A stretch of DNA of 64,000 nucleotides from an uncultured Desulfurococcaceae archaeon. Its GTDB lineage: Archaea; Thermoproteota; Thermoprotei_A; Sulfolobales; NBVN01. Positions 2 through 63,179 of this stretch are shown one piece after another (within the stretch, counting starts at the first letter, position 1; every line of letters starts with the position of its first letter). The stretch spans positions 232,765 to 296,764 of the forward strand of contig CAZXJO010000001.1 of assembly GCA_964641155.1 (NCBI GenBank), given 5' to 3'. The translations under genes were made by a program, and so were the position numbers. A model generated the notes under the pieces. The model did no database searches, had not been told where the DNA came from, and saw only the letters and a program-made list of their open reading frames with translations.

Positions 2-217
2 GGCATGTGGATCAACTACGAATACGAGAACGGTACTTACAAGGTGACGACACCGGTTCCTAAGAGGAAGCCTGTCAAGGAGTACTTAAGACTTCAGGGA
101 AGGTTCAGGCACCTGACCGATGAGGACATCAAGAAGATACAGGAACTAGTTGACGCCGAAGTTGGGAGAATCAACAAATTAGTGGGTAAACAGGTAATAG
201 GCCCCGTTGAGGGCTAA
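2..217 (+). CDS. C-terminal fragment of a 2-oxoacid:ferredoxin oxidoreductase beta subunit (gene begins upstream of window)
   Basis: The ORF is open to the window edge. Its tail KEYLRLQGRFRHLTDEDIKKIQELVD resembles the conserved C-terminus of POR/KOR beta subunits (recalled family pattern). Confidence 0.5.
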   Translation, partial: GMWINYEYENGTYKVTTPVPKRKPVKEYLRLQGRFRHLTDEDIKKIQELVDAEVGRINKLVGKQVIGPVEG

Positions 218-226
218 ATACACATA

Positions 227-1015
227 TTAAGACAACAACTTAACAATGTTTTTTAAATACCTAACCATGTTCTTATCCGGTGCTACTTTCCTCTTAGCGA
301 CCTCCACAACGAAGACGCTGGGCTCGAAGTTGTTGTACATGTCCACGACGTCACCACTACTGCTCACCAATAACGTCGGGGCTAGGCTAACCCCGTCCCC
401 AGTATAGCTGCCCAAGTTAATTATAGGTATTGAGTTCTCGACCGCCCTAACTATTAAAACTGACTTGAGGATGTCCTCCCTAACCGGGGTAAGTCTGGGC
501 AATTGAACAGATAAGATGACGTCAGCACCCAAATAATTACATAGCCTTGGAACCTCAGGCACGTTGATGTCCGAGCCTATCAGGGGGCATAACTTAATAC
601 CGCACACGTCTAAGACTTCGACATCTCTACCAGGGCTCACGGTTAAGTTTAGGTCATTCTCGCTCAACACCTTCTTAACGCGGTGAGTCAACCCTTGAGG
701 TGTTATGAGGACTGAGGCGAGGTACTTCCTACTACCGGCTCTGTGGACTACTGGGGTGACCAATAAATATGTCAACACTTTATTGCTTAAGCCTGAGAGC
801 TTATCGATTAAGTCCGATATAGATGCCATGTAAGCGGAGTACTTCTTAGACCCCTTCAACACATCTATGAGCTGGTGTAGGGGTGCTGGCATTACGACTA
901 GTTGAGCGCCCTTACCCTTAGAATCAATCACGAATTCCTCAACACCCCTTATGAAGTCCTTAACACCTATATCTACATTCAGGTGCAGGACCGCTATCGT
1001 TAATTCGCCGCTCAA
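227..1015 (-). CDS. Carbon-nitrogen hydrolase (nitrilase superfamily)-like protein, divergent
   Basis: 262-aa ORF with a TTG start 1 nt downstream of the rgy stop. It shows a CN-hydrolase-like pattern (QLVVMPA, HRVKKVL, KLCPLIGSD..VPE, RAVENSIPIINLG). The first-motif Glu appears absent (PA instead of PE). Confidence 0.4.
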   Translation of the reverse strand: MSGELTIAVLHLNVDIGVKDFIRGVEEFVIDSKGKGAQLVVMPAPLHQLIDVLKGSKKYSAYMASISDLIDKLSGLSNKVLTYLLVTPVVHRAGSRKYLASVLITPQGLTHRVKKVLSENDLNLTVSPGRDVEVLDVCGIKLCPLIGSDINVPEVPRLCNYLGADVILSVQLPRLTPVREDILKSVLIVRAVENSIPIINLGSYTGDGVSLAPTLLVSSSGDVVDMYNNFEPSVFVVEVAKRKVAPDKNMVRYLKNIVKLLS

Positions 1016-1016
1016 G

Positions 1017-4000
1017 CTAGCACCTTAATAAACCGTGATTGAGCAATTCACTATATAATTCGTTGAGAACGTCTGTGTACTCAGCCCCACCGCTCTCAAC
1101 CATATCCATCTTCTTCTCAAGCTCTTTCGTCCTCTCCTCAGACACCAGAGGGCCAAACCGTTTAGTGAGGTAGTAATACACCCCACTACCTAGTTGCGTA
1201 GGTATTAAGTACCCCCTCTTCTTACTTTCTATTACGTAATTACGCTTAAATAAGGTTTCAAGGATCTTAGCGTAGGTACTTGGCCTGCCGATCCCCTCTC
1301 TCCTCATCATGCTTATCAAACTCGCCTGAGTTAACAGCTGAGTAGCCCCCCTCACAACTACCTTAAAGTTATCTCTTGGAACCTCATAATGCCCTTCAAG
1401 CACCAAACCACTGGGTTTGAAGTACCTGTAAAACCTCGTGAACCCGTCGAAGATCACGTCCACGAAGCCTTCGAACACCACGGATGTATCACCCACTTTC
1501 AAGCACCTACCATCGTTAAGGATCAGCGAGACCTCTACTTCAGCCCTCTGCTTCCTAACCACTGCGTGGTTAGACTGACTAGCCATGAACCTATTGAACA
1601 CCAAGTTGTATATGTCTAGATGATTCTTACTTAACCTCACAGGGGATTCTAAGATACCCCCACTCACTAACTTAAGTATTGTCTCGGCGTCTGCAGGCCT
1701 TGTGGGCCTTATACATTCGTGGGCCCCTTCACTACTCCAAACCCTCGGCGTAAAGTAATTAGCTACTTCCCCGCCCAATGTAGCACTCATATACTCCCTA
1801 GCAATCGCTATCCCGACCTCAGATACCCTAGTACTGTCGGTCCTATGGTAGGTTATGAAACCCGTCTCGAAGAGATCTTGTAAGAACTTCATTGCCTGAG
1901 GTGCAGGTATTCGTAGCATTGAAACTATGTCCGATAACAAAGTATCGGTTGTGTAGGGAGGTGGTGGGCTAACCTCTTCAATGCTTACCTGGTTTTTAAG
2001 GACTTTAACTAACACCTTGCTGATCTCATCATCGCTCACATCCTTCAAGTCGTCGGTTAGTGGTATGTCTAAACGTGTGCCGAACAGATTTAAAACCAGG
2101 AACTTCCTCTTACTGTTAACGTAGTCCTCATAACGTTTGACTATCCATCCAAGCACAGGTGTCTGCACCCTACCAGCACTTAAATTCCTATTAAACCCCT
2201 CAACACATCTGGGGTCTGACGCCAACCTTAGATTATCATTGCAGTACTTCTTCCAAAAATCGGTTTGGAGTAGGTAGGAGAGTGAGAATCCTAACCATCT
2301 ATCCTCGATCCTGCGGACTACCTGAGCCTTAACCAGGTTTAAGTCAATGTTCCTCGGATTGCTCAGGGCTTGGAGTATTGCCTTCCTAGTGACTTCGTGG
2401 AATTCAACCCTTCTTACGCTCTCAGCGTAAGGTCTTAGGAGGACGTACACGTCATATCCTATCTTCTCGCCCTCAGTGTCAGGGTCAGTACCGATGAGGA
2501 CTTCATCAACCTCATATGCCGCGTCCCTCATAGAGTTTATCACTGATGCTGCATCCCTGATACTCTGGGAACCACATACGGGACATCTGCTGGCCTCCTC
2601 AGTGAATTGGTAGCCACACTTAAGGCATCTCTTTATAGAAGCATACACGGGCACGAATTTAAATCCACCATTCAAGCTGCTGTGGATTACACCATAAACA
2701 TTTTCCTGACCAACCAAGTTGTTTATCAGGTCGAATACGTGACCACCACTGGCAGTTATCAACAGGGTGTACTTACCTAAGCTAACCTCGTAGACCCTCA
2801 ACCCACTGTAGTCCCGGAGGCTAGGCTTACCGAAAAACCTCGCTATTGTCCTAGCCTTATTAGGTGATTCCACTATGAGCAAAACAGTCCTAGGCTGTGA
2901 GATCTCCTCAGCTGGCCTGCTGATCTCTGACAGACTTACAGCACCTTCCCTTAAAGACCTTATTAGTTTCCTGTCGAAGTCCACCTCACTTATTAACTTA
3001 TCTAAATCCACCTTCGTGATGTCCCTGAACTCGAACTCGTCGACCAGCCACCTGGCCTTCGATTCCAACCCCCTAAGAAGCCTTAAATCATCAACTACAA
3101 CTACTGAAAGTCCCCTACTAATACCACCTGGAAAAAGCCTTGAGGACCTCCCACTAGCCTGTATGTATGTGGCAACGTCTGGGATTAATACATATAGGTT
3201 GCCTCCCTCCTCAACGATCGACACCTCATCACATCTCTTAAGCTCCTCAATCAATTCAGCGTTGGATAGGTATTTCTGAAGCCTCTCATACGCTCTGAGT
3301 AAATCTTCCTCTAATGCTGTCTCAGCATCCCTAACACCGTCTAAGACTTCCTTAGCCCTAATCAGGGCCCCCGGATAGGCGCGGATGAACTTCCTCCTCA
3401 GCGATAGTGTGAGCCTATCAAGTTCGCTCTTCTCACTGGCATCTTTAACAACCGTGCGTATAATTGTGAGAAGCCTTAGCACGTCCTTGGGACTCAATCC
3501 AGTAGTCCTCAGAGGAACTTTATGTCGCGGGACGCCGACGAACACCACATACCTCACTATCTCAGGCAGGTCAATACCCCTAACCAGTACTCCGTAATAT
3601 GTCGCGACCCCTACCAGAACCGATACCTCCCCCCTAATGAATTCGTTCACGAGCTTGACGTTCTTGCTGTGTAGTGCCTCGGACCGAACACCGTTCCTGC
3701 TGATGACCTCAGCTAGGTACTCAGCATACTCAACGCCCTTGTCCACAGGCACGTATATTAAACCACCCCCTCCAAAACGTTTAACGATCCCTACAACACA
3801 TTCTTCGAGGTTGCTACCCTCCGGCGGGATGAGGAAGGTGTCGTAGACATTCCTTAAAAACTCGGGCCTAGCACCTACATCGAAACCCATCAATTCCCTG
3901 AATAGCTTCACTCGGATACCTCTCGGGTTACCCGTAGCGCTCGATATCACCACCACGCTGTTGTTATTCAACCTCTTACTCAGAATCTCTTCTCTTATCT

Positions 4001-4808
4001 TGGAGATGTCCTCAGACTCCGCAGCCCTTAACCCTTTCCGGAGCTTCAGAACCTTCAACGCAAGCTCAATATCGGAGTCATCATACCCGGCTAACCTTAT
4101 AATGATGTCAACTACCTTAGAGCCCCTTAGGACCGCGTCGACATCATCAACGAATATGAACTTAAACTTATGCCTTAGAACCTTCGCGCTGTTCTTCATC
4201 AAGTACCTAGAGGTCGTCACTAGGATGTCGAACTTCTCTCCGTCCTCTAACATCTCCTCCCTCAGGACGCGTTCCCTTCTACCGATCTTTGAATGAATTA
4301 CTAGGTACTTAATGTTGAACTCTTTAGCCCTCCTTACGTACTCTTCGAGCTTTCTCTCTATTAGCATGGCCAGCATCGTAGTGGGGACCATGATGTAAGA
4401 CTTCAAACCCTTGGAGGCATAATACATGGCCATTACGAGGCCGAAAGTAGTCTTACCCACCCCGGTAGGAGCTATCATGGCGAAGGATGCGTTCCTAACA
4501 AGCCTTCGGAACCACATCCTCTGAACGCTCCAGGGCTTACTCCCGACACATCTCTCGAAGAACTCCGCCATCCTCCTAACCTCCTCCTCAGCGGTGTAAA
4601 GCTTTCTGAACTCTTTGATGGTCCCTAATCTCTCCATAAGCTCGATTACCGTTCTAAGGTCGGCACTTCCTTCAACCTCAGGCAGACATCTTGAACACGG
4701 CAACGATTTAGCTAGCCTACTATCGCTTATGACTCCACCGCAGTTAGGACATCCACCAACATACACCCCTATATCAGCAAGCCTCGCTTCGTTATCCGTT
4801 ACAACCAC
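1017..4808 (-). CDS. rgy: Reverse gyrase
   Basis: 1263-aa ORF with a GTG start. It has an N-terminal Zn finger (CPNCGG), helicase Walker A (APTGVGKTT) and a DDVD box. The C-terminal half is Toprim/type IA topoisomerase (ESPNKARTI, GTDPDTEGEKI, active-site context ITYHRTDST). Confidence 0.95.
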   Translation of the reverse strand: MVVTDNEARLADIGVYVGGCPNCGGVISDSRLAKSLPCSRCLPEVEGSADLRTVIELMERLGTIKEFRKLYTAEEEVRRMAEFFERCVGSKPWSVQRMWFRRLVRNASFAMIAPTGVGKTTFGLVMAMYYASKGLKSYIMVPTTMLAMLIERKLEEYVRRAKEFNIKYLVIHSKIGRRERVLREEMLEDGEKFDILVTTSRYLMKNSAKVLRHKFKFIFVDDVDAVLRGSKVVDIIIRLAGYDDSDIELALKVLKLRKGLRAAESEDISKIREEILSKRLNNNSVVVISSATGNPRGIRVKLFRELMGFDVGARPEFLRNVYDTFLIPPEGSNLEECVVGIVKRFGGGGLIYVPVDKGVEYAEYLAEVISRNGVRSEALHSKNVKLVNEFIRGEVSVLVGVATYYGVLVRGIDLPEIVRYVVFVGVPRHKVPLRTTGLSPKDVLRLLTIIRTVVKDASEKSELDRLTLSLRRKFIRAYPGALIRAKEVLDGVRDAETALEEDLLRAYERLQKYLSNAELIEELKRCDEVSIVEEGGNLYVLIPDVATYIQASGRSSRLFPGGISRGLSVVVVDDLRLLRGLESKARWLVDEFEFRDITKVDLDKLISEVDFDRKLIRSLREGAVSLSEISRPAEEISQPRTVLLIVESPNKARTIARFFGKPSLRDYSGLRVYEVSLGKYTLLITASGGHVFDLINNLVGQENVYGVIHSSLNGGFKFVPVYASIKRCLKCGYQFTEEASRCPVCGSQSIRDAASVINSMRDAAYEVDEVLIGTDPDTEGEKIGYDVYVLLRPYAESVRRVEFHEVTRKAILQALSNPRNIDLNLVKAQVVRRIEDRWLGFSLSYLLQTDFWKKYCNDNLRLASDPRCVEGFNRNLSAGRVQTPVLGWIVKRYEDYVNSKRKFLVLNLFGTRLDIPLTDDLKDVSDDEISKVLVKVLKNQVSIEEVSPPPPYTTDTLLSDIVSMLRIPAPQAMKFLQDLFETGFITYHRTDSTRVSEVGIAIAREYMSATLGGEVANYFTPRVWSSEGAHECIRPTRPADAETILKLVSGGILESPVRLSKNHLDIYNLVFNRFMASQSNHAVVRKQRAEVEVSLILNDGRCLKVGDTSVVFEGFVDVIFDGFTRFYRYFKPSGLVLEGHYEVPRDNFKVVVRGATQLLTQASLISMMRREGIGRPSTYAKILETLFKRNYVIESKKRGYLIPTQLGSGVYYYLTKRFGPLVSEERTKELEKKMDMVESGGAEYTDVLNELYSELLNHGLLRC

Positions 4809-13267: not shown

Positions 13268-14680
13268 CTACGCACCTGAGGACCCAATACTCCTATGAGC
13301 CGGATGGTACTTCCGTATGTAATCCATGCTTATGAGCTTTAACTCACTTTCAGGTAATGTGGCGAGTAAGTCCCAACCTATGTCGAGCGTTTCCTCTATA
13401 GTCCTCCTTTCAAACTCGCCTTGATTTATGAACTTCCTCTCGAAGAGGTCTGCGAAGTTTAAGTACTTCCTGTCCCTATCGCTGAGTGATTCGCCACCCA
13501 CTATTGCTGTAAGCTCCCTTAAGTACTGCCCCTCAGCGTAGGCGGATATCAACTGCATGAAGACCTGGTAGTGGTCCTCTCTAGTTTTCCCAGGACCCAC
13601 GCCGTCCTTCATTAACCTAGAGAGCGATAGGAGGACGTCGACAGGTGGGTACACACCCTTCCTGAAGAGGTCTCTGGAGAGCACTATCTGACCCTCAGTT
13701 ATGTACCCCGTTAAATCAGGTATTGGATGCGTTATATCGTCGTCAGGCATTGTGAGTATGGGCATCTGGGTTATTGAGCCCTTCTTACCGCTTATCCTGC
13801 CAGCCCTCTCATATATCGTAGCCAGGTCGGTATACATGTATCCCGGATATCCACGCCTTCCAGGAACCTCCTCGCGAGCGGCGCTCAACTCCCTCAACGC
13901 CTCACAGTAATTCGTCATATCCAACATCAAAACCAGTACGTGTGTGTCATACCTCCAAGCCAGGAACTCGGCAATGGTTAGTGCGACTCTGGGAGTAGCT
14001 ATCCTCTCTATAGTCGGTGCTGAGGCAGTGTTAATCAGCGAGACAACGTTCTCCACCGACGAGGCACTCCTCAACGAGTTTATGAAGTAGTACGCATCTT
14101 CGTAAGTAACACCTATGGCTGCAAATACCACAGCAAAACGCTCCTCAGAACCCCTAACCCTTGCCTGCCTAACTATCTGAGTCGCCATCCTGTTGTGCGG
14201 TAGCCCCGCACCGCTGAATATGGGTAATTTCTGACCTCTAACTATGGACAGCAAACCATCAATTGATGACAAACCAGTTTCTATGAATTCTGAGGGGGGC
14301 AACCTACTTGCCGGGTTTATGGGTACGCCATTAATATCTAAGAAGTCCTCAGGAACTATTCCAGGGCCTCCGTCTATGGGTCTGCCAAGGCCGTCCAGCA
14401 CCCTGCCGAGCACGTCAACAGCTACCGGTATTCTGAGGGTTTCCCCCTTAAACCTAACCTTAGACGTTTTAACGTTAACCTCACTAACGCCTCCGAACAC
14501 TTGGATTACGGTGACATCCCTCGAGACATCGATCACCTGTCCCAGCCTTGACTCACCGCTCTCTAACATGACCTCAACGATCTCACCGTAACTTATCCCA
14601 GGAATGGACTTCACAAATAACAGCGATCCCTTAGCACTTAAGACGCTTCTTAACTCCTTAACAGACAGCATATGGCTCAA
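13268..14680 (-). CDS. atpB: A-type ATP synthase subunit B
   Basis: 470 aa with non-catalytic B-subunit patterns ([44 protein letters not shown]). Confidence 0.95.
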
Positions 14681-17600
14681 CCCACCGCCCTCATTAAATT
14701 GTTTAAGGATTCCTCTATCTCGTTAATGACGCTGTTGTAGAACTCTCTAAACTCCTTAGGATCTACTTCCTTCATCCTCGCGATTTTGACCCTGGCGGGT
14801 AGCTCCTTAATACTGTTTAAAGATACGCCGTGTAGTAATGCATCATAAGCCTTCCTATAGAACCTGAGTATTATGTCCATCATCAACAACGTTTTCTCAG
14901 GGGGTGAGTAGGAGTCTATGGGGTGGTAGGCACTTTGCTGCAGGAAGTCCTCCCTAATCATCCTGGACACCTCAAGTACGAGTTTATCCTGCTCTGGCAG
15001 GGCGTCAGGACCCACCAAACGGACTATTTCCATCAACTCAGCCTCCTTCTGGAGCAACCTTATGAACTCCCTCCTCAACTCACTCCAGGAGCTACCGAGC
15101 TTGGACCACCACGCGCTGACGTTATCAACGTATAACGAGTAACTCAATAACCAACTAACCGATGGGAAATGCCTTCTGTTAGCCAGCGAGACATCTAAGG
15201 AGATTAAAGTACCTATATACCTCAACGTGTTCTGAGTTACCGGTTCGCTGAAGTCTGCTCCCGGAGGTGAGACAGCCCCCACTATGGTCAGGGATCCGTT
15301 CCTGCTTGGACTCCCAACACATTCAACACGTCCCGACCTCTCGTAGAAGCTAGCAAGCCTAGAACCTAAGTAGGCTGGGAAGCCCTCCTCACCAGGCATT
15401 TCCTCCATCCTAGCGCTTATCTCACGCATCGCCTCAGCCCACCTAGAGGTTGAGTCAGCAACTAGGAGTACGTCATAACCCATATCTCTGAAGTACTCAC
15501 CTAAAGTAGCTCCTAAGAAGACGCTTGTCTCACGAGCTGCTACAGGCATGTTGGAGGTGTTGGCTATGAAGATGGCCTTCTCGTACAGCGGCCTACCGGA
15601 AGTCGGATCAACTAACCTCTTAAAGCTGTGCAAGGCATCAGCCATCTCATTACCCCTCTCCCCGCAACCTACGTAGATGTTTACTTGAGTCCTACTCCAC
15701 TTAGTCAGCGTCTGCAACAACACCGTATTATGGAATATCGTAGGTACGTAACCTCCAACAAAGTTATGAGTGCTGGGCACAACCAGGTCGTACACCACCG
15801 TAGGATTATGGATAACTTCCACCGATTTGACCTCATCCAAAGCTACACACTCATGAAGTCCTGAAACACCCTCAAGGCATTCGACAAGCTGATTCGAAGA
15901 ACCACTAACATTCATCGACATGGTCGTTAATTTAAGGGAAGCCCGTACCCCAACACTTTCCTCATCACATGGTCTGCTGCCTACGTAAGTACCCTCACTA
16001 CCTAGCGCCTCCTTAGGGACCACATCACGAACGTTCCTTAAGGCACCCATCGATGTAGGGAAAAACGCCCTAACCAGCCCTCCCTCATTACTACTGAGCA
16101 TGTGACCTCCCACTCCTCCCCAATCCTCAGCGGGGGCATCATTATGAAGGACTTTCTCAATGAATTTACGCGCTTCAGGAATCCTAGCTATGCAGATCGT
16201 GTTTCTCCCTTCACCTAAGTCCACGGTGTATAGGATGCCGAGCCTTGATAGCAAGTAGGTTGTACCTATAGCCAATTTCTTAGAGGAGGTTGTGAACTTT
16301 ATGACATCCCCGCTAACGGTTCCGCCGCCAAGGAACAATCCTCTAAGAAATGCCGTCACTACGTTGTTAGGAGCCCTCATAATAATTTCAGGAACCTCGT
16401 GTGTCTGTGGTTCCCCTACGTCGGGGATGCCGATGACCTTTAGCAATCTGACTACTAACGCTGACCGCACCTCCGCCCCGTTCGCGTTTCCGGACTCCTT
16501 TCTCTCAACCCCAAACACACTCTTCATCAAATCACTGACTCTTCGTAGGAGAACTTCATTGTTGCTGAAGAACATTACAGTCTGCCCGACGACCTTACCG
16601 TTAGACAGTATTAGACCGAGTAATTCAGCAAGCTCTTCAGTAACTCTGTCGGGTATCCTAACACTTTCCCCGCCCTCTCTCAATCCTAGTACTTTAGGAT
16701 GTCCTACACCCCCACCAACGATTCTGCTAACAGCAGCGATGAGCTTTAAAGGTATTGAAACTCCCTTGTGAACTAAAGCCTCTATCTCCTCCCTGGATAA
16801 GTTGGTCTCATCAACTAACTTGTCTATGGTACCCTCTCCCAACTTAAGTGATTGACGAAGTAATTCCCTAACCCTCCGATTAGTCTCCTCATCCCTGCTG
16901 ACGAGATCGTTGTAAACATTCAGCCTTTCTAAGGGTATCTCGGAAGCGGGTTCATCCCCAACCATCGGTATCTTTCTGGGGACAATGAGGAGCATCCCCG
17001 GCTTCAACTCCTTAGCTTTAAGCTCAAGCACCTTCCCATCAGGCTCATAGACCGGTAATCTATGGTCTGGGGTCACCTCAATTAACCTACCGCTGGAGGT
17101 CTTCACCCTAACTATTTCCTCAGTGAAGCCTCTATATACATGAGTCGCCACAGTAATCTTCAGTTCCCCACCACTGAATCCGTATACAGCTAGCGGCGGC
17201 TCTAACTCGTAAACCTCCTCAGCCACGCTTAAGTCTGGCTTACCTCCCTTAGCTTCCTCGAAGATTTTATCTATGATTTTAAGCGATCCGTCGGCCAACA
17301 GCACCGGTGTGCCGGGTACCACGCACTTACCTGAGCCGAACCCGCCCGGGACTGCCGCCTTACCCCCTACAGCTATGGGGAATAATGCGTCAAGAACTCT
17401 TGTGCCGGTCACTAGGAGCTCGGTAGGTTCTAACCTCCTGATGTATGGCCTTGCCTTCCTAATAGGCCACTCCTGATACATCATTACATCTAAGACTTCA
17501 TCACCTCTTCCAACTCTAGCTATGACTTCATCAACCCTGTAATCACCGTCGCTCACTAACTCCTTTAGGTAACCTGAGACGTTGGGCGGAACCATGATTT

Positions 17601-18045
17601 TATGCGTTATAAGTGGTGTCTCATCAACGTACCCTAAAACGTCGTTAGGTCCGACCTTATCACCTATTTTTAACCCCTTCTCCCTCCTGAAAAGCCATTT
17701 AACATCTCTAGGTAGTGGGGGTACTCTAACACCTCTCCTGACGAAGGGACCTGAAAGCACCTCCAACTCCGACAACGGTCTTTGAAGGCCGTCGAAGACC
17801 TTACCTATCAGACCCGGTCCCAACTCAGCTGAGAGCAACTTCCCGCCGCCCTCAACAGGCTCACCCACACTTAAACCCGACACGTCCTCGTATACCTGAA
17901 TGAATGCCCTGTCCCCTTGAATACCTATGATCTCACCTATCAGCCTTTCATTGCCCACGTAGACTACCTCATAGATCATCGAACCACGCATGTTCTCGGC
18001 AACGACTAACGGCCCTGAAATCCTCCAAATCCTACCTACGACCAT
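14677..18045 (-). CDS. atpA: A-type ATP synthase catalytic subunit A, interrupted by an intein
   Basis: 1122-aa ORF. The exteins (240 + 349 aa) reconstitute a normal 589-aa A subunit, with the P-loop GGFGSGK|[11 protein letters not shown] split by a 533-aa insert. Confidence 0.95.
15727..17325 (-). mobile_element. Intein in the atpA P-loop (VMA-type site), 533 aa
   Basis: It starts with Cys (TGC, 17325-17323) right after GSGK and ends ..IFHN (AAT, 15729-15727) followed by Thr. Block B is TPDH. LAGLIDADG-like motifs are [14 protein letters not shown] and [12 protein letters not shown]. Confidence 0.9.
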
Positions 18046-20749: not shown

Positions 20750-20845
20750 TGGGGCCGCGGCCGGGATTTGAACCCGGGACCTCGGGATCTCCACCTCTTC
20801 AGGAGCCCACAGTCCCGCGCTCTTCCAGGCTGAGCTACCGCGGCC
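20750..20845 (-). tRNA. tRNA-His (GUG) with an 18-nt intron at 37/38, encoded G-1 and CCA
   Basis: I folded the cloverleaf by hand. It has G-1, acceptor GCCGCGG/CCGCGGC with C73, D arm GCTC-AGCCTGGAA-GAGC, and anticodon stem CGGGA/TCCCG with loop CTGTGG|intron GCTCCTGAAGAGGTGGAG|A. The T arm is CCGGG-TTCAAAT-CCCGG, followed by a terminal CCA. Confidence 0.9.
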
Positions 20846-30059: not shown

Positions 30060-30393
30060 ATGCGGTCCGGAGCTGGCTGGTGGTCACGGGGCATCCCCCT
30101 GAGGAAACTCCGTCCTCCGCACGGTACCGGGACCTCGTAAGAGGTGCAGGGAGACCTGCGGCAACGGCACAGAAACGACACGTCCCACACCAGATGTCTA
30201 TGATGCTGTGAGGGTTAAGTAGTAATACTTAACCAGTAACCAGCTGAGTACGGTGTGGGGTGCGTTGAAACGGCCGACCCCCGGGGAGTAAGGCCAAGCA
30301 GTACCGATGAGTGCCGTGTGAGGTACGGGTGGGCCGCTAAGCCCAATACCACCGAAGTACAGAAGACGGGTTATAGCCAGCACCGGACCGCAT
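30060..30393 (+). ncRNA. rnpB: RNase P RNA
   Basis: An 11-bp terminal helix pairs ATGCGGTCCGG (30060-30070) with CCGGACCGCAT (30383-30393). A P2-like pairing joins GCTGGCT and AGCCAGC. The CR-I-like GAGGAAACTCCGTC pairs with CR-V-like ACAGAAGACGGGTTATAGCC. Internal CGTAAGAGGTGCA, GTTGAAACGG and GTAAGGCCAAGCAG resemble S-domain/P15 conserved blocks. Confidence 0.85.
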
Positions 30394-31156: not shown

Positions 31157-33361
31157 ATGTCATCGCGAACACTTGCGGAACTTCTGTGGGTTGAGAAGTA
31201 CAGGCCGAAGACCCTATCAGAAATCGTTAACCAGGGAGATATTGTCAGGAGGTTACAACAGTTTGTTAAAGAGCGGAACATGCCACACCTACTGTTTGCG
31301 GGGCCTCCGGGAACCGGTAAGACGACAGCAGCCCACGCATTCGCTCACGATCTTTACGGCCCGGACTACAGGATGTACATGCTTGAGTTAAACGCATCTG
31401 TCTCCAAAAACACCCCAATACTTGTTAGGATGAACGGGAGGACAACCCTAACAACGTTTGCGGAGCTGGACAAGCTGTACTTCTCCGAATGTGATGGGGA
31501 CATATCATCTAAGGTAGTGAACGACCTAGAGGTTTTGACCATCGATGAGGACCTGAAGGTTAAGTGGGGGAGGGTCACCAGGATAATGCGGCATAAGGTA
31601 CCTGTCGTGTTGAGGCTGAAGTTAGAGCAGGGAGGTATCTTGGAGTTAACCGGGAACCACTCAATAATGGTACTGACTGAGGAGGGTTTGAAAGCTGTTA
31701 AAGCGAGTGAGTTAAAGGTCGGGGATTTCCTCCTCACCTTTACGGCAAACATTGAAGGAAGAGTTAACGTACCCCCAGTTAAACCAAGCATTCCTAAGCG
31801 TAGTGGTGAGGATGTAGCCATTGAGGGACCTACCTCAGAGGGAGGAACATTGTCGGCACATGCTTCAGAGGCTTCGGGACCTAACCCGTTCATGAATTGT
31901 ACACCTTCAGCCCCCAGCACACCTACCGCGAACTTCAATTATTTAGATGCTCTAAGCGCTGATCTAGTGAGATTTGTGAAAGGAGCTGCAGTTGGTTGTG
32001 TTGGTAATCAAACGGCTTACGGAAGGAGGATGCCATCATACATCTTCGACCTCCCAACATATGCACGCCTGAACTTCCTGAAGGGTTTGGTCTGGGGTGG
32101 CGGGGTTGGTGGGTTGTGTAGCGTAATTAGGCTGAGCTCGCCGTCGGCGGAAATGCTTACAGATATTGTGTGGTTAGGTAGGATCTCGGGTGTTGAAACA
32201 AGCCTGCAGGGAGATTGTGAGGTAAGACTTAATTGGGCAGATGGTGCTGAGTCGCGGAACTCGGGGTTAGTGAACCTCGCGTCGATTAGAAATCTTATAG
32301 AGAGATTATTGAACAAGGCTTCAGGGGACTGGAGGTATGTCCTGAGGCGTCAGCTATGTGAGGGGGAGGGGAGGATCAGTAAGGAGGAGCTCGCCAGAGC
32401 GATCAGCATGGTCAGCCCGGAGGGGCTTGATGGTGAAGAAAGGAAAGCTTTTGAATTATTGAGTAAGATAGCGAACTCAGACATTCATTCCATCAAGATA
32501 ACGGATATAGAGTTAGTGGAATATAACGACTATGTTTACGATGTAAGCGTTCCGGGGGGTGAGATGTTTTTCGCAGGAACAGTACCAGTGCTATTACACA
32601 ATTCCGATGAACGCGGCATTGACGTGATTAGGGGTAAGGTTAAGGAGTTCTCCAGGAGTAAGCTACCTGCCAACGTACCGTTCAAGATAGTACTGCTTGA
32701 TGAGTCGGATAACATGACAGCAGATGCTCAGCAGGCGCTCAGAAGGCTGATGGAGATGTACGTCGATGTGACACGCTTCATTTTGGTGGCGAACTACCCG
32801 AGCAAGATCATAGAGCCGATCCAGTCCAGGTGCGCTGTGTTCAGGTTCGTACCTCTCAGGAAGGAAGATGTTGTGGGTAGGTTGAGGTGGATCTGCAAGA
32901 ATGAAGGTATTAAATGTGATGAGGAGGCGTTAGAAGTCATACATGATATCTCTGAGGGTGATATGAGGAAGTCCATAAACATATTGCAGGCTTCTGCAAG
33001 CATAGGTGAGGTGAACGTATCAAACGTCTTTAAAGTTGTCGGGCTGGCGCATCCGAGGGAGGTTAGGGAAATGATGCAGTTAGTTCTCGAAGGTAAGTTC
33101 ATGGAGGCTAGAGACAAGTTACGTGAACTCATGATCACCTACGGTATCTCAGGGACTGATATAATCAAGCAGATCCATAGGGAGGTGTTCAGTCAGGAAC
33201 TGTCAATGCCCGAGCCCTTAAGGGTCGAAATCGCGGATTACTTAGGTGAGATTCAGTTTAGGCTGGTTGAAGGTGCTGACGAAGAGATTCAGTTAAACGC
33301 GTTGCTAGCCAAGTTAGCCTTACTTGGGAGAGCTGCTAAGACAATAAAACCTGCGAAGTGA
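31157..33361 (+). CDS. rfcS: Replication factor C small subunit, interrupted by an intein
   Basis: 734-aa ORF. The exteins (80 + 252 aa) give a normal 332-aa RFC-S with WVEKYRP, GPPGTGKTT, LELNA|SDERGIDVIR, LDESDNMT and SRC. Confidence 0.95.
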   Translation: MSSRTLAELLWVEKYRPKTLSEIVNQGDIVRRLQQFVKERNMPHLLFAGPPGTGKTTAAHAFAHDLYGPDYRMYMLELNASVSKNTPILVRMNGRTTLTTFAELDKLYFSECDGDISSKVVNDLEVLTIDEDLKVKWGRVTRIMRHKVPVVLRLKLEQGGILELTGNHSIMVLTEEGLKAVKASELKVGDFLLTFTANIEGRVNVPPVKPSIPKRSGEDVAIEGPTSEGGTLSAHASEASGPNPFMNCTPSAPSTPTANFNYLDALSADLVRFVKGAAVGCVGNQTAYGRRMPSYIFDLPTYARLNFLKGLVWGGGVGGLCSVIRLSSPSAEMLTDIVWLGRISGVETSLQGDCEVRLNWADGAESRNSGLVNLASIRNLIERLLNKASGDWRYVLRRQLCEGEGRISKEELARAISMVSPEGLDGEERKAFELLSKIANSDIHSIKITDIELVEYNDYVYDVSVPGGEMFFAGTVPVLLHNSDERGIDVIRGKVKEFSRSKLPANVPFKIVLLDESDNMTADAQQALRRLMEMYVDVTRFILVANYPSKIIEPIQSRCAVFRFVPLRKEDVVGRLRWICKNEGIKCDEEALEVIHDISEGDMRKSINILQASASIGEVNVSNVFKVVGLAHPREVREMMQLVLEGKFMEARDKLRELMITYGISGTDIIKQIHREVFSQELSMPEPLRVEIADYLGEIQFRLVEGADEEIQLNALLAKLALLGRAAKTIKPAK
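31397..32602 (+). mobile_element. Intein in rfcS, 402 aa, Ser1 type
   Basis: It begins with Ser (TCT, 31397) after LELNA and ends ..VLLHN (AAT, 32600-32602) followed by Ser. Block B is TGNH. It has a degenerate LAGLIDADG-like motif NFLKGLVWGGGVG and a low-complexity Pro/Ser/Ala linker. Confidence 0.85.
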
Positions 33362-51904: not shown

Positions 51905-53926
51905 TTGAGTGACAGATGTGACGTGATAGTGGGGTTAGACGTTGTTACATCTGGCGCGAAATTAAGTGACTACTCATATGCCCTGGCAGTGTTAAGGAAT
52001 GATGAACTCACGACTTATGAGTGCGTGAGTTTGAGCAGGCTTATAAGGCTTTTATGGGAACTCAGACCTAAATGGATAGCTTTAGATAACATCATGGAAC
52101 TAGGTGGGAGTAAGAGGAACCTCATCAGGATCCTCCGCCTACTACCCCCCGAGAGCAAGGTAGTCCAAGTAACTTTAAACAACAACGAGTTAGTAGATTT
52201 ACGCAAGCTAGCTCTTAAAACTGGCCTACAACTCGAGCAGGGTAAGTTACCGCCCCAGAAAACGGCCGAGGTCTTAGCAATACTCTCCACTAAGGGCTAC
52301 GGTACGGTGTTGAAGCTGTTTGAGGATAAGGTTAGGGTCGTTATAAGCAGGGGGAAAGTTCCAGGGCCAGGGGGTTCTAGCTCCGATAGGTTTAAGAGGG
52401 GCTTGAGGGCTTCGGTATTAAGCGCTACTAAGAAGTTTAAGGAGGAGCTGGATAAGAGGGGTTTGGACTACGACCTAACTTTCAGGAAGAGTGAGGGAGG
52501 TATTGACCGAGCGTTATTCACGGTGTACTCGCCGTGGCATGAACTCAGCGAAGTAGTTAAGTCTGTGAAGGGTTATGACGTCAGCATAAAGGTTAAGCCG
52601 GTGATTAGGAAGAAGTTCATAGACTTAATGTTCAACGATGCCCGTGGTGATAGGTTCCTCATAGTAGGGGTGGATCCGGGTATTGAGACGGGGCTAGCGA
52701 TAATTGACTTAGATCTCAGACCCCTAGTTCTTACCAGTGGTAAGAACTTAGATAGGGAGAAAATAATTCAGATAGTCCTTAAGCATGGTACGCCCGTCCT
52801 AGTCGCCACTGATAAAAACCCCCCTCCCGAGATGGTTGAGAAGCTCGCAGCCAACTTAAACGCCATGTTGTACTATCCGCCAAGGAGTCTTAGCAGTAGT
52901 GAGAAGGATGCGTTGGTTTACGATTACCTGGCGATGTACGGGATAAGCACGAGAACAACACATGAAAGGGATTCCTTAGCTTCATGTATAAAGGCGTATA
53001 AGGAGTTCGAGGATAAGATCAGGCAACTCACCTCAAAGCTTAATGAGATAGGGTTACCGGTCCCGAAGTTGCAGAAGTATAAAGCCGAGATAATTAAGGG
53101 TAGGAGCATTGCGGACGTGATCGAGGACGTAATAAGTACTTACATCAGCAAGGAGAGTACCTATAGCAGGGATAGCCTAGTGCGTGTCATTAAGTTGTTG
53201 GCTAATGAGGAGATCGATAGGAAGGATAGGGAACTTCTAAGTCAGATTGAGAGGGTATCTAAGGAACGTGACATGCTTAAGGGGCGGATTAAGGAATTAG
53301 AGAAGAGGCTTTCTGAGTTGGAGACGGAGTTGACCTTGAGGGCCGTGGAGTTTGACGCTGAAGTAGCTAGGGACAGGGAGGTCTCGGAGTTGAAGCACAG
53401 GTTGAGGAAACTCAACGACCATGTAGGTAAATTGGAGGGGCAGTTGTTAGATGCTACTAAGCTCCTAGACCGCTATAGGAACTTATTTAACTCTCTATTC
53501 ACCGGTAATTACGTATTGGTCAGGCGTCTCCGCACGCTTACGGCGGATGAGCTGACTAGATCGACTCAGGAATTAGGTGCGTTACGTGAGGATGAGGTAG
53601 TGTTCGTGGATGAGCTACGTGATGTCGGGGAAGTTGTCGTTAAGACTGCCAAGAATTTGAGGTTGAAGTTTGTGATTCATAAATCCGTGGAAATACCTCC
53701 ACGCATTATGGAAATGTATGAGTTAGTTGTTCATCAATGTGACGGATTCGTGGAGGTAAACGATGCGTTAGTGTTAGTTCCCGCATCAACTGTGACGGAG
53801 TTACGGAGGATTGAGGAGGAGATGCGTAGGAAAAGTAGGGGTAAACTCGAGGTAGATTATGAGAAGCTCCTAAACATAGTGAGGGAGTATAGGAGCGGTA
53901 GGTCTGTTAAAGTGGCCGAGAGTTAA
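51905..53926 (+). CDS. DUF460/COG2433-like protein (RNase H-fold nuclease-like domain plus long coiled coil)
   Basis: 673 aa. FLIVGVDPGIETGLAIIDLD...VLVATDKNPPP resembles the DUF460 core. Residues ~440-510 are heptad-rich (KERDMLKGRIKELEKRLSELETEL). Confidence 0.65.
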   Translation: MSDRCDVIVGLDVVTSGAKLSDYSYALAVLRNDELTTYECVSLSRLIRLLWELRPKWIALDNIMELGGSKRNLIRILRLLPPESKVVQVTLNNNELVDLRKLALKTGLQLEQGKLPPQKTAEVLAILSTKGYGTVLKLFEDKVRVVISRGKVPGPGGSSSDRFKRGLRASVLSATKKFKEELDKRGLDYDLTFRKSEGGIDRALFTVYSPWHELSEVVKSVKGYDVSIKVKPVIRKKFIDLMFNDARGDRFLIVGVDPGIETGLAIIDLDLRPLVLTSGKNLDREKIIQIVLKHGTPVLVATDKNPPPEMVEKLAANLNAMLYYPPRSLSSSEKDALVYDYLAMYGISTRTTHERDSLASCIKAYKEFEDKIRQLTSKLNEIGLPVPKLQKYKAEIIKGRSIADVIEDVISTYISKESTYSRDSLVRVIKLLANEEIDRKDRELLSQIERVSKERDMLKGRIKELEKRLSELETELTLRAVEFDAEVARDREVSELKHRLRKLNDHVGKLEGQLLDATKLLDRYRNLFNSLFTGNYVLVRRLRTLTADELTRSTQELGALREDEVVFVDELRDVGEVVVKTAKNLRLKFVIHKSVEIPPRIMEMYELVVHQCDGFVEVNDALVLVPASTVTELRRIEEEMRRKSRGKLEVDYEKLLNIVREYRSGRSVKVAES

Positions 53927-59838: not shown

Positions 59839-59994
59839 CTATAAGTTCTTATTAAGTAAGCCCCTCACAATTTCACATACGAACGTTGCGATCAGGATGA
59901 CCACGGTCGAAGTCTTGACAATGAACGAAGCGGAGGAGACCATCACTAAGGCGGCACCTAGAGCGAGTACCAAGTAAAGCATGCGCCTACCCAT
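59839..59994 (-). CDS. Small hydrophobic hairpin protein (51 aa)
   Basis: Hand-translated: MGRRMLYLVLALGAALVMVSSASFIVKTSTVVILIATFVCEIVRGLLNKNL. The ATG is 2 nt after the stop of the upstream polytopic membrane gene. It is below the ORF-track cutoff. Confidence 0.5.
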   Translation of the reverse strand: MGRRMLYLVLALGAALVMVSSASFIVKTSTVVILIATFVCEIVRGLLNKNL

Positions 59995-59995
59995 A

Positions 59996-61372
59996 TCACA
60001 CCATCCTTAGAGGTAACCCCCTACCGCCTAGGAACCTAGCCAATGAAGCTGATATAGACAGTAGTAAAGTCATATAAAGTGATGGGAGGAACACCAGTGA
60101 GAAGATTAGCGCCATTCCTAAGGAAATGGTGTCAATTAAGATCGAGTTCACATCCTCCACCGCTATGATTCTTTTCTCATTGACGGTCGGTTTCTCAATG
60201 TATAGTGACTCATAGCTAACTTCAACGTACGCTGGGGAACTCGCCGCCACTACTTCGCAGACGCTCACTTGAATGCCGTACCAGTTGAAATCATTAATTA
60301 ATCCGCAACTAGTCACTTCACCATTAATGCTCAGTGAACGTATGACAGTCCCCCTAGGATATGCTAGTAAGAGGTTGGGCTGTGATTGATTGGAAGTGCT
60401 AGTTATAGATATGCCTACGGTACCCTCCTTTAACTCAACCATGCTTACCACAGCATCTGTTGGTACCGGGATCAACAGTCTACCATTCGCGGAAGTTAAG
60501 AGGCCCGGAACGGTTAGGTTTACGACACATGTACGTGTTGGGCCGCAGACCTCGTCGTTGATGGTGCTCAGTGCTGGGGTGAAGGAGAACCCGTAAAGCT
60601 CTAGCACTACGTCGTAGTTAAAGTCTTTGGGGAGCAGGTCATATCCTCCGCCTAAGACATACCTCCCGGACTCATCTACTAGGATAGTCCCCACAAGCTC
60701 GTAGTCTTTGTAGAGTTTAATCACTGCGTTAGGCACTAACCCACCTGAGGCATCTACTACGTATCCGCTAATCTGGGGATTATCAAAACCGATGTTAGTA
60801 ATCGATGCTTGGAAACTTTCTACGAATGCCGGCATTAGAGGGAGCCCAACATACATGACTAAGGACATAGCCACTAGGTACGCCCCTGCATTCTTACCTA
60901 TACGCATAGGTATTGAGTAAAGGGCAATACCTAACAACATTAGGTACCTGTGATACGTCAGTATGAATGAACCCAAGAAGGCGAGCAACCTAAGTGCTGA
61001 AAACGTCGCTGATAAGTAGCCAACCACTATGTTGATAGGCGATGAAAGGAAGGACACGTAGGGGTATTTCAGAAGCCCGGAAATGTAAGTCAGCACGGAA
61101 AACCCTGAGAAAATCAGCGCAATCCTACCACCTATCCATGTGAAGTAGTTACTCCAATTAGCGCCTAACAGGTTTTGTAGAAACGATGTTAGATCCAAAA
61201 TCAACGTAAAACATGAGATCATTATGCATGCCGATATGCCATCAGTAATTAAGTTAATTCCCCACCTCTTGATGGATTTTAACGGAATCGGTAGGGAGTA
61301 CAGCACTACGCCTAGATTGTAAGTCAGTAGCGCCAAATTAAACGCTACCAACTGTAAGTCATCACCACTCAT
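59996..61372 (-). CDS. Polytopic membrane protein with extracytoplasmic beta-rich (CarboxypepD_reg-like) domain
   Basis: About 458 aa from the ATG at 61372. About 6 N-terminal TM helices are followed by a ~230-aa soluble region (ISGYVVDASGGLVPNAVIKLYKD..ESGRYVLGG) and a C-terminal TM segment. The ORF-track start at 61420 overlaps the upstream gene. Confidence 0.6.
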   Translation of the reverse strand: MSGDDLQLVAFNLALLTYNLGVVLYSLPIPLKSIKRWGINLITDGISACIMISCFTLILDLTSFLQNLLGANWSNYFTWIGGRIALIFSGFSVLTYISGLLKYPYVSFLSSPINIVVGYLSATFSALRLLAFLGSFILTYHRYLMLLGIALYSIPMRIGKNAGAYLVAMSLVMYVGLPLMPAFVESFQASITNIGFDNPQISGYVVDASGGLVPNAVIKLYKDYELVGTILVDESGRYVLGGGYDLLPKDFNYDVVLELYGFSFTPALSTINDEVCGPTRTCVVNLTVPGLLTSANGRLLIPVPTDAVVSMVELKEGTVGISITSTSNQSQPNLLLAYPRGTVIRSLSINGEVTSCGLINDFNWYGIQVSVCEVVAASSPAYVEVSYESLYIEKPTVNEKRIIAVEDVNSILIDTISLGMALIFSLVFLPSLYMTLLLSISASLARFLGGRGLPLRMV

Positions 61373-61385
61373 GTAGGGGCCCTGC

Positions 61386-61649
61386 CTACGGCTGAGGTGG
61401 CGGGGGCATCGGCTGTGCAATATTTGAGGTTATGTAGGAAATCAGTGAGAATATCGAGCTACCCAGAGCCAACCAGAACGCAGCTATTACCGCATCCTCA
61501 ACTAGCGATTGCCCGGTCCTCTTCAACCTATAGAAAGGTATTGGAGAACCTTTCAGCGCCCAACCAACGAACCAGGCCAGTAAGAAAACGAACCATGAAA
61601 TCGTAACTACCTGAAGCGTTAGCTCCCTGACGAAGTCCGCAATGCCCAT
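61386..61649 (-). CDS. Small 2-TM membrane protein with Pro-rich tail
   Basis: 87 aa. Two hydrophobic helices are separated by the basic loop LKGSPIPFYRLKRTGQS. It is the first gene of a three-gene same-strand cluster. Confidence 0.55.
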   Translation of the reverse strand: MGIADFVRELTLQVVTISWFVFLLAWFVGWALKGSPIPFYRLKRTGQSLVEDAVIAAFWLALGSSIFSLISYITSNIAQPMPPPPQP

Positions 61650-61902
61650 CTACCTCCCCAAAAACCTGCAAACTTAAAAAGTGTTAATACCAGCCGTCCT
61701 CATTCATCACCAGCCCCCACCCCTCCAGCCGCCAAAACAGCCTCATAACCCCCTCAGCATGATACCGACTACCTCGGTCCTGAGGAATTGCAGTAATGGA
61801 CTGGAGGCCTGCTCAAAGTTAAGTCTTAAGTGGGAAGTGTCGGTCATGAGTCATCATCAGAAGTTCCCTCCACTTAAGGTGGGGTGCTGCGTAAGCGTGT
61901 AG

Positions 61903-63179
61903 CCTGGTCAGACTTACATCCTTGGAGTAGGGGTTCACGGCGGATGCGAAGCAGGGGTAGTTGTTAGAGGCGTTCACCTCCCTAGGAAGGTATTCAATGA
62001 CTTCGTCGAGCTCGAAGGTATGTGTCGTAACATGGTTGAACAGTTAATGATGTACGCTATTGGAAACAAGGCAACGGGTTTTACTAAGCTTAAGGTAGAG
62101 AAATACCGTGAGATGAGGGATCTCCACCCGCAACTACCTTCACACTACGTCTGCACGGCATGTCAAGACGCTAGCACCAGAGCCAAGAGCTTTCTAAAAC
62201 TGAAGAAGCGAGGTCTAACCGATAAGGTATACACAGTGGTTAGGAACATCAGCATATTGCTCGACGGCCACCTATGGAAACTCAATGGCTTAACCTCCAT
62301 TGAAATAGCTACTCATAAAGGAAGGTTATCCATAGGTTTCGTACCTCACGAGCGGTATTGGAAATACTTCAACAGATGTTGGGGGCTTGCTTCTGAGGTG
62401 AAAATAAAGCTTGATAATGAGAACAGACAGCTACTAGTCTACCTAACCTTCGTTAAGGAAATTGAGGAGTATAAGCACGAGGGGTATCTGCTGTAGACGT
62501 CAATGAAAACAACATCGCTATACTAGTTGACGGTGTTGCATACCTCTTTGAGACAAACATGGAGAAGCTCGTTCTAGGATATTACTACCGCAGAAAGAGA
62601 GTACAGGAGAAGTACGAGAAGCTCTACGGTGTTAAATCACGTGCGAAGAAGAAAACGCTCAGAAAACTCAAAGAGAGAAAGAAGAAACAGGACGTAAAGT
62701 GGAAGATAGCAAACATAGCCGTTAGAACAACTTACGAGATGCGGTACACCATCGTTCTTAAGAAGCTCGGTAAGAGACCAGCTGACAACATGATTATGAA
62801 GTTTAAGGATGAACAGTTACGCCATAGGATGTATCGGACATCCTTTAAAGGTATTCAGAAAGCAATTGAGGGGGAAGCAAAGGAGTACGGCGTACCAGTG
62901 GTCTACGTAGACCCTAAGAACACTTCGAAGCAGTGTCCAATACACAGGGCCCTCATAATCTATGACACCGGTTCTAGGATTGGTAGGTGCAGTAAAGAAG
63001 GTGAATTATGGTATAGAGACGTTGCTACTTGCTGGAACCTTCTTTTCAAAGCCCTAGGGGGTGATGGGGGCAACGCTCCAAATCTCTTAGGGCTGAGTGT
63101 AGATGGGAGCCACGTGCCGTTGGGCTCGACAACCACGCATGACCCCGCAGGGATACCCGAAGCACAGTGGGCGAGGTAG
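61903..63179 (+). pseudogene. tnpB: Decayed IS200/IS605-family TnpB (OrfB), frameshifted, no TnpA
   Basis: The N-terminal part (frame of 62020-62496) and the C-terminal part (frame open from 62475, GVSAVDVNENNIAILVDG...) require a -1 shift near the G-run at 62481-62484. There is no start codon for the upstream homologous stretch. The RuvC-II context reads IVLKKL instead of ..E.L, and the Zn finger is reduced to CPIH...C. RuvC-III YRDVATCWNLL is retained. Confidence 0.75.

Follow-up and report, generated by a model that had tools for sequence, protein, structure and literature searches.

Ced is, to our knowledge, the sole chromosomally encoded archaeal DNA-import machine that is understood genetically, and nearly all work on it has been done on the short CedA of Sulfolobus. 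In Sulfolobus acidocaldarius the membrane proteins are encoded in the order cedA1-cedA-cedA2 (saci_0569/0568/0567), and the ATPase genes cedB (saci_0748) and cedD (saci_0667) are unlinked to them (PMC11823120). The Ced components have been related to VirB2 and VirB6 of type IV secretion systems (T4SS) by HHpred and superposition (PMC9905601, PMC11868833). CedA has been described with a pilin-like N-terminal hairpin, and CedA2 as poorly conserved (PMC9905601). In this study, a 64-kb stretch of the contig CAZXJO010000001.1 from an uncultured Desulfurococcaceae archaeon (hereafter the window, meaning the whole stretch) was investigated for a cluster of three membrane genes near its right end, which an initial annotation had proposed to be a Ced/Ted-type or related module. 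The analysis suggests, with a probability that we put at roughly 80%, that the locus is a chromosomal cedA1-cedA-(cedA2-like) operon for the membrane core of Ced, the DNA-import machine of crenarchaea, which is itself a domesticated relative of type IV secretion. The host is a hyperthermophilic archaeon of the Desulfurococcaceae type, and the system is a known one in an under-described structural variant. The features of the locus, with the evidence for each, are the following.

61386..61649, minus strand: cedA1, two-helix Ced pilin (VirB2-like) of 87 amino acids (aa) without a leader peptide; NF041797 and 8DFU matches
59996..61372, minus strand: long form of cedA, 458-aa polytopic membrane protein (VirB6-like channel or pilus-assembly platform); NF041796 and hhalign
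60797..61372, minus strand: CedA membrane core, residues 1-192; CedA1 model match at residues 6-65 and invariant columns
60188..60781, minus strand: inserted ectodomain of two beta-sandwiches (D1, D2), residues 198-395; insertion relative to the 261-263-aa CedA, AlphaFold2 and Foldseek
59999..60160, minus strand: C-terminal transmembrane helix and basic tail of CedA, residues 405-458; aligns with the last helix of canonical CedA
59839..59994, minus strand: 51-aa two-helix membrane protein, positional CedA2 counterpart; starts 1 nucleotide (nt) after the cedA stop
61671..61685, minus strand: promoter-like B recognition element (BRE)/TATA box AACACTTTTTAAGTT, putative in its promoter function; upstream conservation across seven genomes
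61653-61659, minus strand: Shine-Dalgarno-like motif GGGGAGG, 3' of the promoter box

The three open reading frames (ORFs) are tightly spaced on the minus strand (61649..61386, 61372..59996 and 59994..59839), and each is present as originally described. The spacers, given there as 14 and 2 nt, measured 13 nt between cedA1 and cedA and 1 nt between cedA and the 51-aa gene, a trivial difference. The ATG at 61372 was taken as the start of cedA because every homologue begins at the MSGDD position; the TTG at 61420, which would add 16 residues (474 aa), was dropped on the homologue alignment. A scan of one genome per species yielded 24 related loci (L001-L024) from uncultured Desulfurococcaceae, Desulfurococcales and 'Sulfolobales archaeon' metagenome-assembled genomes (MAGs) and from Zestosphaera tikiterensis. 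In seven related genomes the AACACTTTTTAAGTT box, which ends about 20 nt 5' of the cedA1 start codon, is the sole conserved block of the cedA1 upstream region, and a promoter-like AACACTTTaTAAGTT box is kept about 20-35 nt 5' of the start. This is the pattern that a BRE/TATA promoter giving only a very short leader would be expected to show. Because the CedA1 homologue, the two-helix ORF and the promoter-like box are conserved in related loci, the three genes are, judged from their sequences, real and not chance ORFs.

The 87-aa protein carries two hydrophobic helices and the basic loop LKGSPIPFYRLKRTGQS that had been quoted for it. It matches the NCBIfam family NF041797 Ced_CedA1 over the entire model (positions 1-75 of 75) with 122.1 bits and E 7e-36, above the curated equivalog cut-off of 100 bits. 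The cryo-electron microscopy structure of the Aeropyrum pernix pilin (8dfu_B in the Protein Data Bank (PDB)) was matched with E 8e-21 over residues 3-74, the alignment beginning at query residue 3 and pilin residue 4. Since the match to 8DFU starts at the third residue, the score against Ced_CedA1 together with it indicates a CedA1 pilin without a cleaved leader. The protein is thereby assigned as the orthologue of the A. pernix CedA1 pilin. Directly 5' of the long cedA, a CedA1 homologue with 57-90% identity was found in all 24 related loci. A Ted identity was considered and rejected, as the pilin matches CedA1 and 8DFU from the third residue onwards; this decision was made without a direct comparison with a TedC profile. 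Of the two systems first named, it is thus Ced that stands, on the CedA1 cut-off, the 8DFU match, the homology of the CedA core, the gene order and the link to ATPase genes in other lineages. A VirB2/VirB6-like architecture had been noted as well. No direct similarity to the bacterial proteins was recovered: 8DFU was the sole match in the PDB profile searches, and no VirB6 was among the top 50 Foldseek matches of the full 458-aa model. The link to VirB2 and VirB6 comes from the literature (PMC9905601, PMC11868833). As a separate observation, the C terminus of the clade's CedA1 proteins is a proline-rich tail that hardly varies, PMPPPPxP (61386-61412, minus strand, in the window), and the alignment with 8DFU ends before it.

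For the 458-aa protein, the best family is NF041796 Ced_CedA (158.6 bits, E 2e-46; residues 7-217 align with model positions 8-221 of 259), and its paralogue CedE comes next. An hhalign comparison of the window's CedA family with 19 short Sulfolobaceae CedA proteins gave a probability of 100% and E 3e-45 over 189 columns. In the joint alignment the short CedA matches residues 1-200 of the long form and then again its C-terminal helix, which leaves some 200 residues cleanly inserted between the last two CedA helices. The first hairpin is pilin-like: the CedA1 model matches residues 6-65 (E 1e-7), 8DFU matches the CedA-family profile (E 2.6e-4), and the Pfam CedA1 family PF27251 is precomputed on the N terminus. 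This hairpin contains an invariant loop, LPIPxxxxKxW, and a cytoplasmic motif, P-[FM]-R-I-G-[KR]-x-x-G, is conserved at residues 155-163. By these comparisons the core of the protein is homologous to the canonical Sulfolobaceae CedA. The canonical architecture of about 260 aa with six to seven transmembrane helices and no large soluble domain is not that of the 458-aa protein. Its AlphaFold2 model has a mean predicted local distance difference test (pLDDT) score of 78.5, with five long helices in residues 3-192, strands in 200-389 and a helix at 408-447. The C-terminal membrane anchor of the initial annotation is thus borne out, and its estimate of about six N-terminal transmembrane helices becomes five long helices, equivalent to five to six spans.

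The inserted domain had been described as an extracytoplasmic, beta-rich region of about 230 residues that could not be placed in the described CedA. It is indeed beta-rich, absent from the Sulfolobaceae CedA and cleanly inserted in the alignment; its length is about 200 residues (198-395). Modelled alone with AlphaFold2, it gave two beta-sandwiches with a pLDDT of 91.5 and a predicted template modelling score of 0.86. D1 has the transthyretin/carboxypeptidase-regulatory fold (Foldseek matches 2nsm, 3e8v, 4v4c_B and 1uwy, probability 1.0, root-mean-square deviation 3-4.5 A over about 92 residues), and Pfam PF13620 matches the ectodomain weakly. The tandem of sandwiches resembles, again weakly, the stalks of the Gram-positive pilins BcpA and RrgB (E about 2e-4). 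The Foldseek search against the PDB matched no catalytic domain and returned only non-catalytic surface or stalk modules. In 61 family members the ectodomain holds 194 N-x-S/T sequons, compared with 81 +/- 8 in shuffled sequences (a 2.4-fold excess). The density per 100 residues is 1.6 in the ectodomain, five-fold that of the cytosolic proteins of the window (0.3), and 0.14 in the membrane part of CedA. Cysteine counts in the ectodomain are even in 50 of the 61 members. The loop charges, read from the sequence, fit the positive-inside rule for a CedA with its N terminus outside, its C terminus inside and the beta domain outside. The ectodomain is probably extracellular, since N-glycosylation sites are enriched in it, and the loop charges, the cysteines, the surface-module matches and the fast evolution of D2 point the same way. 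Among close relatives mean identity falls from 60% in the core to 50% in D1 and 33% in D2, the fastest-evolving part of the long CedA. D2 is accordingly a candidate specificity surface, a proposal made with low to moderate confidence. Outside the Archaea, D1-like modules occur 16-17 times in two giant 'beta strand repeat-containing' proteins, P0145 from Fictibacillus (3709 aa) and the bacterial P0161 (3865 aa), suggesting that the module is a widespread repeat of surface proteins.

An exhaustive profile search of 1.84 billion representatives retrieved 371 relatives of CedA, and a second homologue search with a 61-sequence profile added little (15 matches). Among the matches listed, about 120 are 425-525 aa long and match end to end and about 25 are 246-300 aa long; as these were ranked by score against the long-form profile, the ratio favours long forms. 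The short relatives include Saccharolobus proteins named 'DNA import protein CedA' by NCBI and a homologue from Aramenus. The long ones, from Desulfurococcales or Crenarchaeota MAGs, go by the names hypothetical or 'carboxypeptidase regulatory-like'. In a clustering restricted to the membrane core, the short forms fell mainly into one cluster and the long forms into at least 10. In the Ced literature cited here, which does not extend to the founding Ced paper, CedA is a membrane protein of six to seven helices and an ectodomain is not mentioned. We tentatively suggest that the long CedA could be the usual and possibly the ancestral archaeal VirB6 homologue, from which the short Sulfolobaceae form would be derived, and that the ectodomain might serve as a base for the CedA1 pilus or recognise the partner envelope, tasks outside the membrane for which archaea would otherwise have no parts; we consider this less likely than not.

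In six distant lineages with a distantly related long CedA (L025-L032), a gene for a HerA/VirB4-type ATPase lies directly 3' of the pair of cedA1 and long cedA. The best family of this downstream ATPase was NF041017 CedB in all three cases tested (E 4e-23 to 5e-49). Three of the six lineages have a second such gene upstream: in L025/L026 and in L027 it is divergent and its best family is CedD (E 4e-26 and 2e-22), and in L030 it is of the same Pfam type, with no CedD score. The CedB- and CedD-like genes beside cedA in these lineages thus tie the long CedA to the Ced motor.

The third gene of the cluster, a 51-aa hydrophobic hairpin as first noted, is matched by a counterpart in the corresponding position of each of the 22 complete related loci. 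In each of the 22 loci that extend far enough, an ORF of 49-65 aa with two hydrophobic helices starts at most about 40 nt past the cedA stop codon or overlaps it, and tblastn with the 51-aa protein matched the five closest loci with E 4e-8 to 3e-5. Because the gene order equals that of saci_0569/0568/0567, the protein is regarded as a counterpart of CedA2 by position and architecture only, not by homology. In three of the distant loci a small ORF of 56-58 aa lies between cedA and the downstream ATPase gene (L025 11461-11637, L029 5421-5591 and L030 7513-7686). It was also observed that the ATPase lacks an N-terminal membrane helix where the small ORF is present (L025, L030) and begins with one where it is missing (L027, L031, L032), L029 being ambiguous. 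In this very small sample (n=5), the small protein may act as a VirB3-like membrane tether for the ATPase.

Several points weigh against the assignment of the locus to Ced. The score of the 458-aa protein against NF041796 (158.6 bits) is below the equivalog cut-off of that family, 330 bits. The 51-aa protein has no detectable homology to any family, CedA1 included: none of 19 members of the set of small ORFs matched NCBIfam, and the profile of these 19, the window's protein among them, gave a probability of 0.1% against CedA1 in hhalign. AlphaFold2 draws residues 107-152 of CedA as one continuous helix of 46 residues, so the model does not settle whether there are six or seven membrane spans; their number, and with it the placing of the beta domain inside or outside, is argued from charge and glycosylation, not from the model. 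CedB-, CedD- or VirB4-like genes were found neither in the 64-kb window nor within 10 kb in the 24 closest relatives. The role of the ectodomain is pure inference, with low to moderate confidence, and DNA import, pilus formation and damage induction are predictions for this locus.

The initial annotation had remarked that no ATPase is adjacent, and no ATPase gene of the CedB, CedD or VirB4 type was found in the window or at the 24 related loci. No CedB, CedD or VirB4 was present among the 20 largest ORFs of the window and the conserved neighbours of the 24 loci; the genes found in this search are all housekeeping genes (reverse gyrase, V-ATPase, RFC, Orc1, PolB, RLI, a PAPS-reductase-like protein and others). 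Likewise, tblastn with the CedB- and CedD-like proteins from L025-L029 matched neither the window nor L001-L024. The comparison shows that in the window's clade the membrane genes are separated from any Ced-type ATPase genes, as they are in S. acidocaldarius. In one locus, L002, a NurA-domain protein (354 aa) and a HerA/DUF87-type ATPase (611 aa) are encoded 6-9 kb 5' of cedA1 (1195-4084), the ATPase having no NCBIfam match at E <= 1e-10. This pair was not counted as CedB, as it occurs at one locus only and looks like a repair paralogue. Beltran et al. noted HerA-like genes near Ted loci.

The absence could mean that the Ced membrane module of this clade works with a VirB4/TedB-type ATPase encoded elsewhere, not with CedB and CedD. 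Such a hybrid would account for CedB- and CedD-like genes flanking the long cedA in distant lineages and missing at all 24 loci of the clade, and it has a precedent in the genus Desulfurococcus, which has VirB4 instead of CedB/CedD (PMC11868833). However, an absence from a 20-kb neighbourhood is uninformative for the rest of the genome, cedB is also far from cedA in S. acidocaldarius (PMC11823120), and a VirB4 gene was present in none of the loci examined. We regard the hybrid as unlikely.

Two further explanations draw on the decayed TnpB that had been reported beside the cluster, and a split TnpB was confirmed there.

62020-62496 and 62559-63179, plus strand: split TnpB (IS200/605-type, Cas12f-like TNB domain) in ORFs of 158 and 206 aa

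With a decayed gene adjoining the operon and no ATPase nearby at any of the 24 related loci, the module might be an orphan that has lost its ATPases, its genes making at most a filament for adhesion or structure and no longer serving DNA import. However, none of the three ORFs is broken in any locus, CedA1 keeps 57-90% identity across the clade and the promoter box is retained, which argues for purifying selection and not decay. Moreover, the assembly of a conjugative-type pilus in known T4SS requires a VirB4-type ATPase. An orphan module is considered improbable.

The T4SS-related components and the same TnpB remnant would also fit a cluster that is not a host system but serves the transfer of an integrated element, conjugative or otherwise mobile. 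The position of the cluster argues strongly otherwise. A downstream block encoding a CxxCxxCC protein, riboflavin kinase, an endonuclease V-like protein, proteasome beta and a GTPase is conserved in about 20 genomes, and the upstream neighbours of cedA1, which vary among the 24 loci, are housekeeping genes as well. No integrase, relaxase or flanking tRNA was found in the scans of the window, and Rfam and tRNA scans gave no match near the ced cluster. The split TnpB lies between an AdoMet decarboxylase gene and the ced promoter, the box of which is intact. In L001, L003 and L004 the decarboxylase gene directly adjoins cedA1 with no TnpB at the site; the TnpB is therefore a lineage-specific insertion that has since decayed. 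The genes of the window (reverse gyrase, thermosome, V-ATPase, RFC, Orc1, aminoacyl-tRNA ligases and the RNase P RNA) and its flat GC content, which does not deviate at the cluster, are those of an ordinary hyperthermophile chromosome. Because the housekeeping gene order is conserved, the mobile-element reading was rejected as highly improbable, and the ced cluster is chromosomal, not mobile.

The NCBI names of its relatives and the weak PF13620 match might suggest that the 458-aa protein is no relative of CedA but a membrane-anchored adhesin, or a 'carboxypeptidase regulatory-like domain protein', that happens to lie beside a pilin gene. This reading is excluded for practical purposes by the 100% hhalign probability to CedA over 189 columns, the alignment of its C-terminal helix and the PF27251 match on its N terminus.

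For the Ced reading, the steps of pilus, channel and ATPase action can be outlined from established work on Ced and T4SS (PMC9905601, PMC11823120, PMC11868833). CedA1 would be drawn out of the membrane and assembled, along with lipids, into a hollow pilus of the conjugative type, with CedA oligomers forming the membrane channel and the platform for pilus growth. ATPases at the cytoplasmic side would power assembly and DNA import, the DNA being pulled in by ATPases of the CedB/CedD type, or possibly the VirB4 type, encoded elsewhere in the genome. The glycosylated ectodomain, which would stay near the membrane because it is anchored at both ends, may form a collar at the membrane's outer face that holds the base of the pilus or makes contact with the cell envelope or a partner cell. 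In bacteria, roles at the pilus base and in the envelope belong to VirB5, VirB8 and VirB10, and contact with the partner is the role of Ups pili in Sulfolobales.

A few other observations were made in the same sequences. In L024, the region about 6-10 kb 5' of cedA1 (79-4219) encodes a pilus ATPase of the FlaI/TadA type, which carries an intein-like insertion, and a membrane protein that scores best against UpsF but falls far short of the cut-off. A type IV pilus locus near the ced genes was seen in this one branch only; the gene order of L023 is similar, its upstream genes lying outside the scan. In the window, the V-type ATPase A subunit (14677-18045, minus strand, 1122 aa) and the RFC small subunit (31157-33361, plus strand, 734 aa) are about twice their normal length with family matches in two separate stretches, and they probably contain inteins. 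A 673-aa protein (51905-53926, plus strand), with DUF460 as its sole family match and no match in NCBIfam, is kept in five related loci, where its relative position is unchanged (cluster c23). A tRNA gene of 92-95 nt (20750-20844, minus strand), for which the ARAGORN anticodon is unclear, probably contains an intron, and an archaeal RNase P RNA is located at 30068-30385 (plus strand).

The practical result for the window is a corrected annotation of three genes. Beyond it, a conserved extracellular module is present in the majority of the listed CedA relatives that are not from Sulfolobaceae, and current annotation names hide these proteins. If this pattern holds, surveys undercount the archaea capable of DNA exchange, and models of the channel and the pilus base lack one part. 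The ectodomain would then also offer a handle, by antibodies, deletions or cryo-electron tomography, on pilus anchoring and partner specificity.

Compared with the described systems, the locus is closest to the Ced system of Sulfolobales. It shares the gene order of S. acidocaldarius and, as there, has no ATPase genes adjacent (PMC11823120); the CedA core is homologous, and CedA1 has no signal peptide in either. It differs from the described Ced in the CedA insertion, in an unrecognisable small subunit and in the lack of linked ATPase genes in its clade: the CedA of Sulfolobaceae has 261-263 aa and is devoid of the ectodomain of about 200 residues, and the small protein has no detectable similarity to any family. 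Partner recognition in Sulfolobales additionally involves Ups pili, and an extended Ced pilus has not been observed in them (PMC11823120). The Ted system of Thermoproteales follows the same logic, with a chromosomal gene for a VirB2-like pilin followed by one for a VirB6-like polytopic protein (PMC9905601). TedC, however, is made with a Sec signal peptide that is cleaved off and does not resemble CedA1 in sequence, whereas the proteins of the window match the Ced families directly. The likeness to the conjugative-type CedA1 pilus of A. pernix (8DFU; PMC9905601) includes the GSPIP...R.KR.G loop of the pilin. Both A. pernix and the host of the window are archaea of the Desulfurococcales type with no known Ups system. 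Among bacterial systems, extended VirB6 proteins such as TraG of the F plasmid are polytopic inner-membrane platforms for pilus assembly, and some carry large extracytoplasmic domains for mating-pair stabilisation. The CedA of the window would likewise be a polytopic platform, its extra domain being an internal loop insertion anchored at both ends and not a terminal extension.

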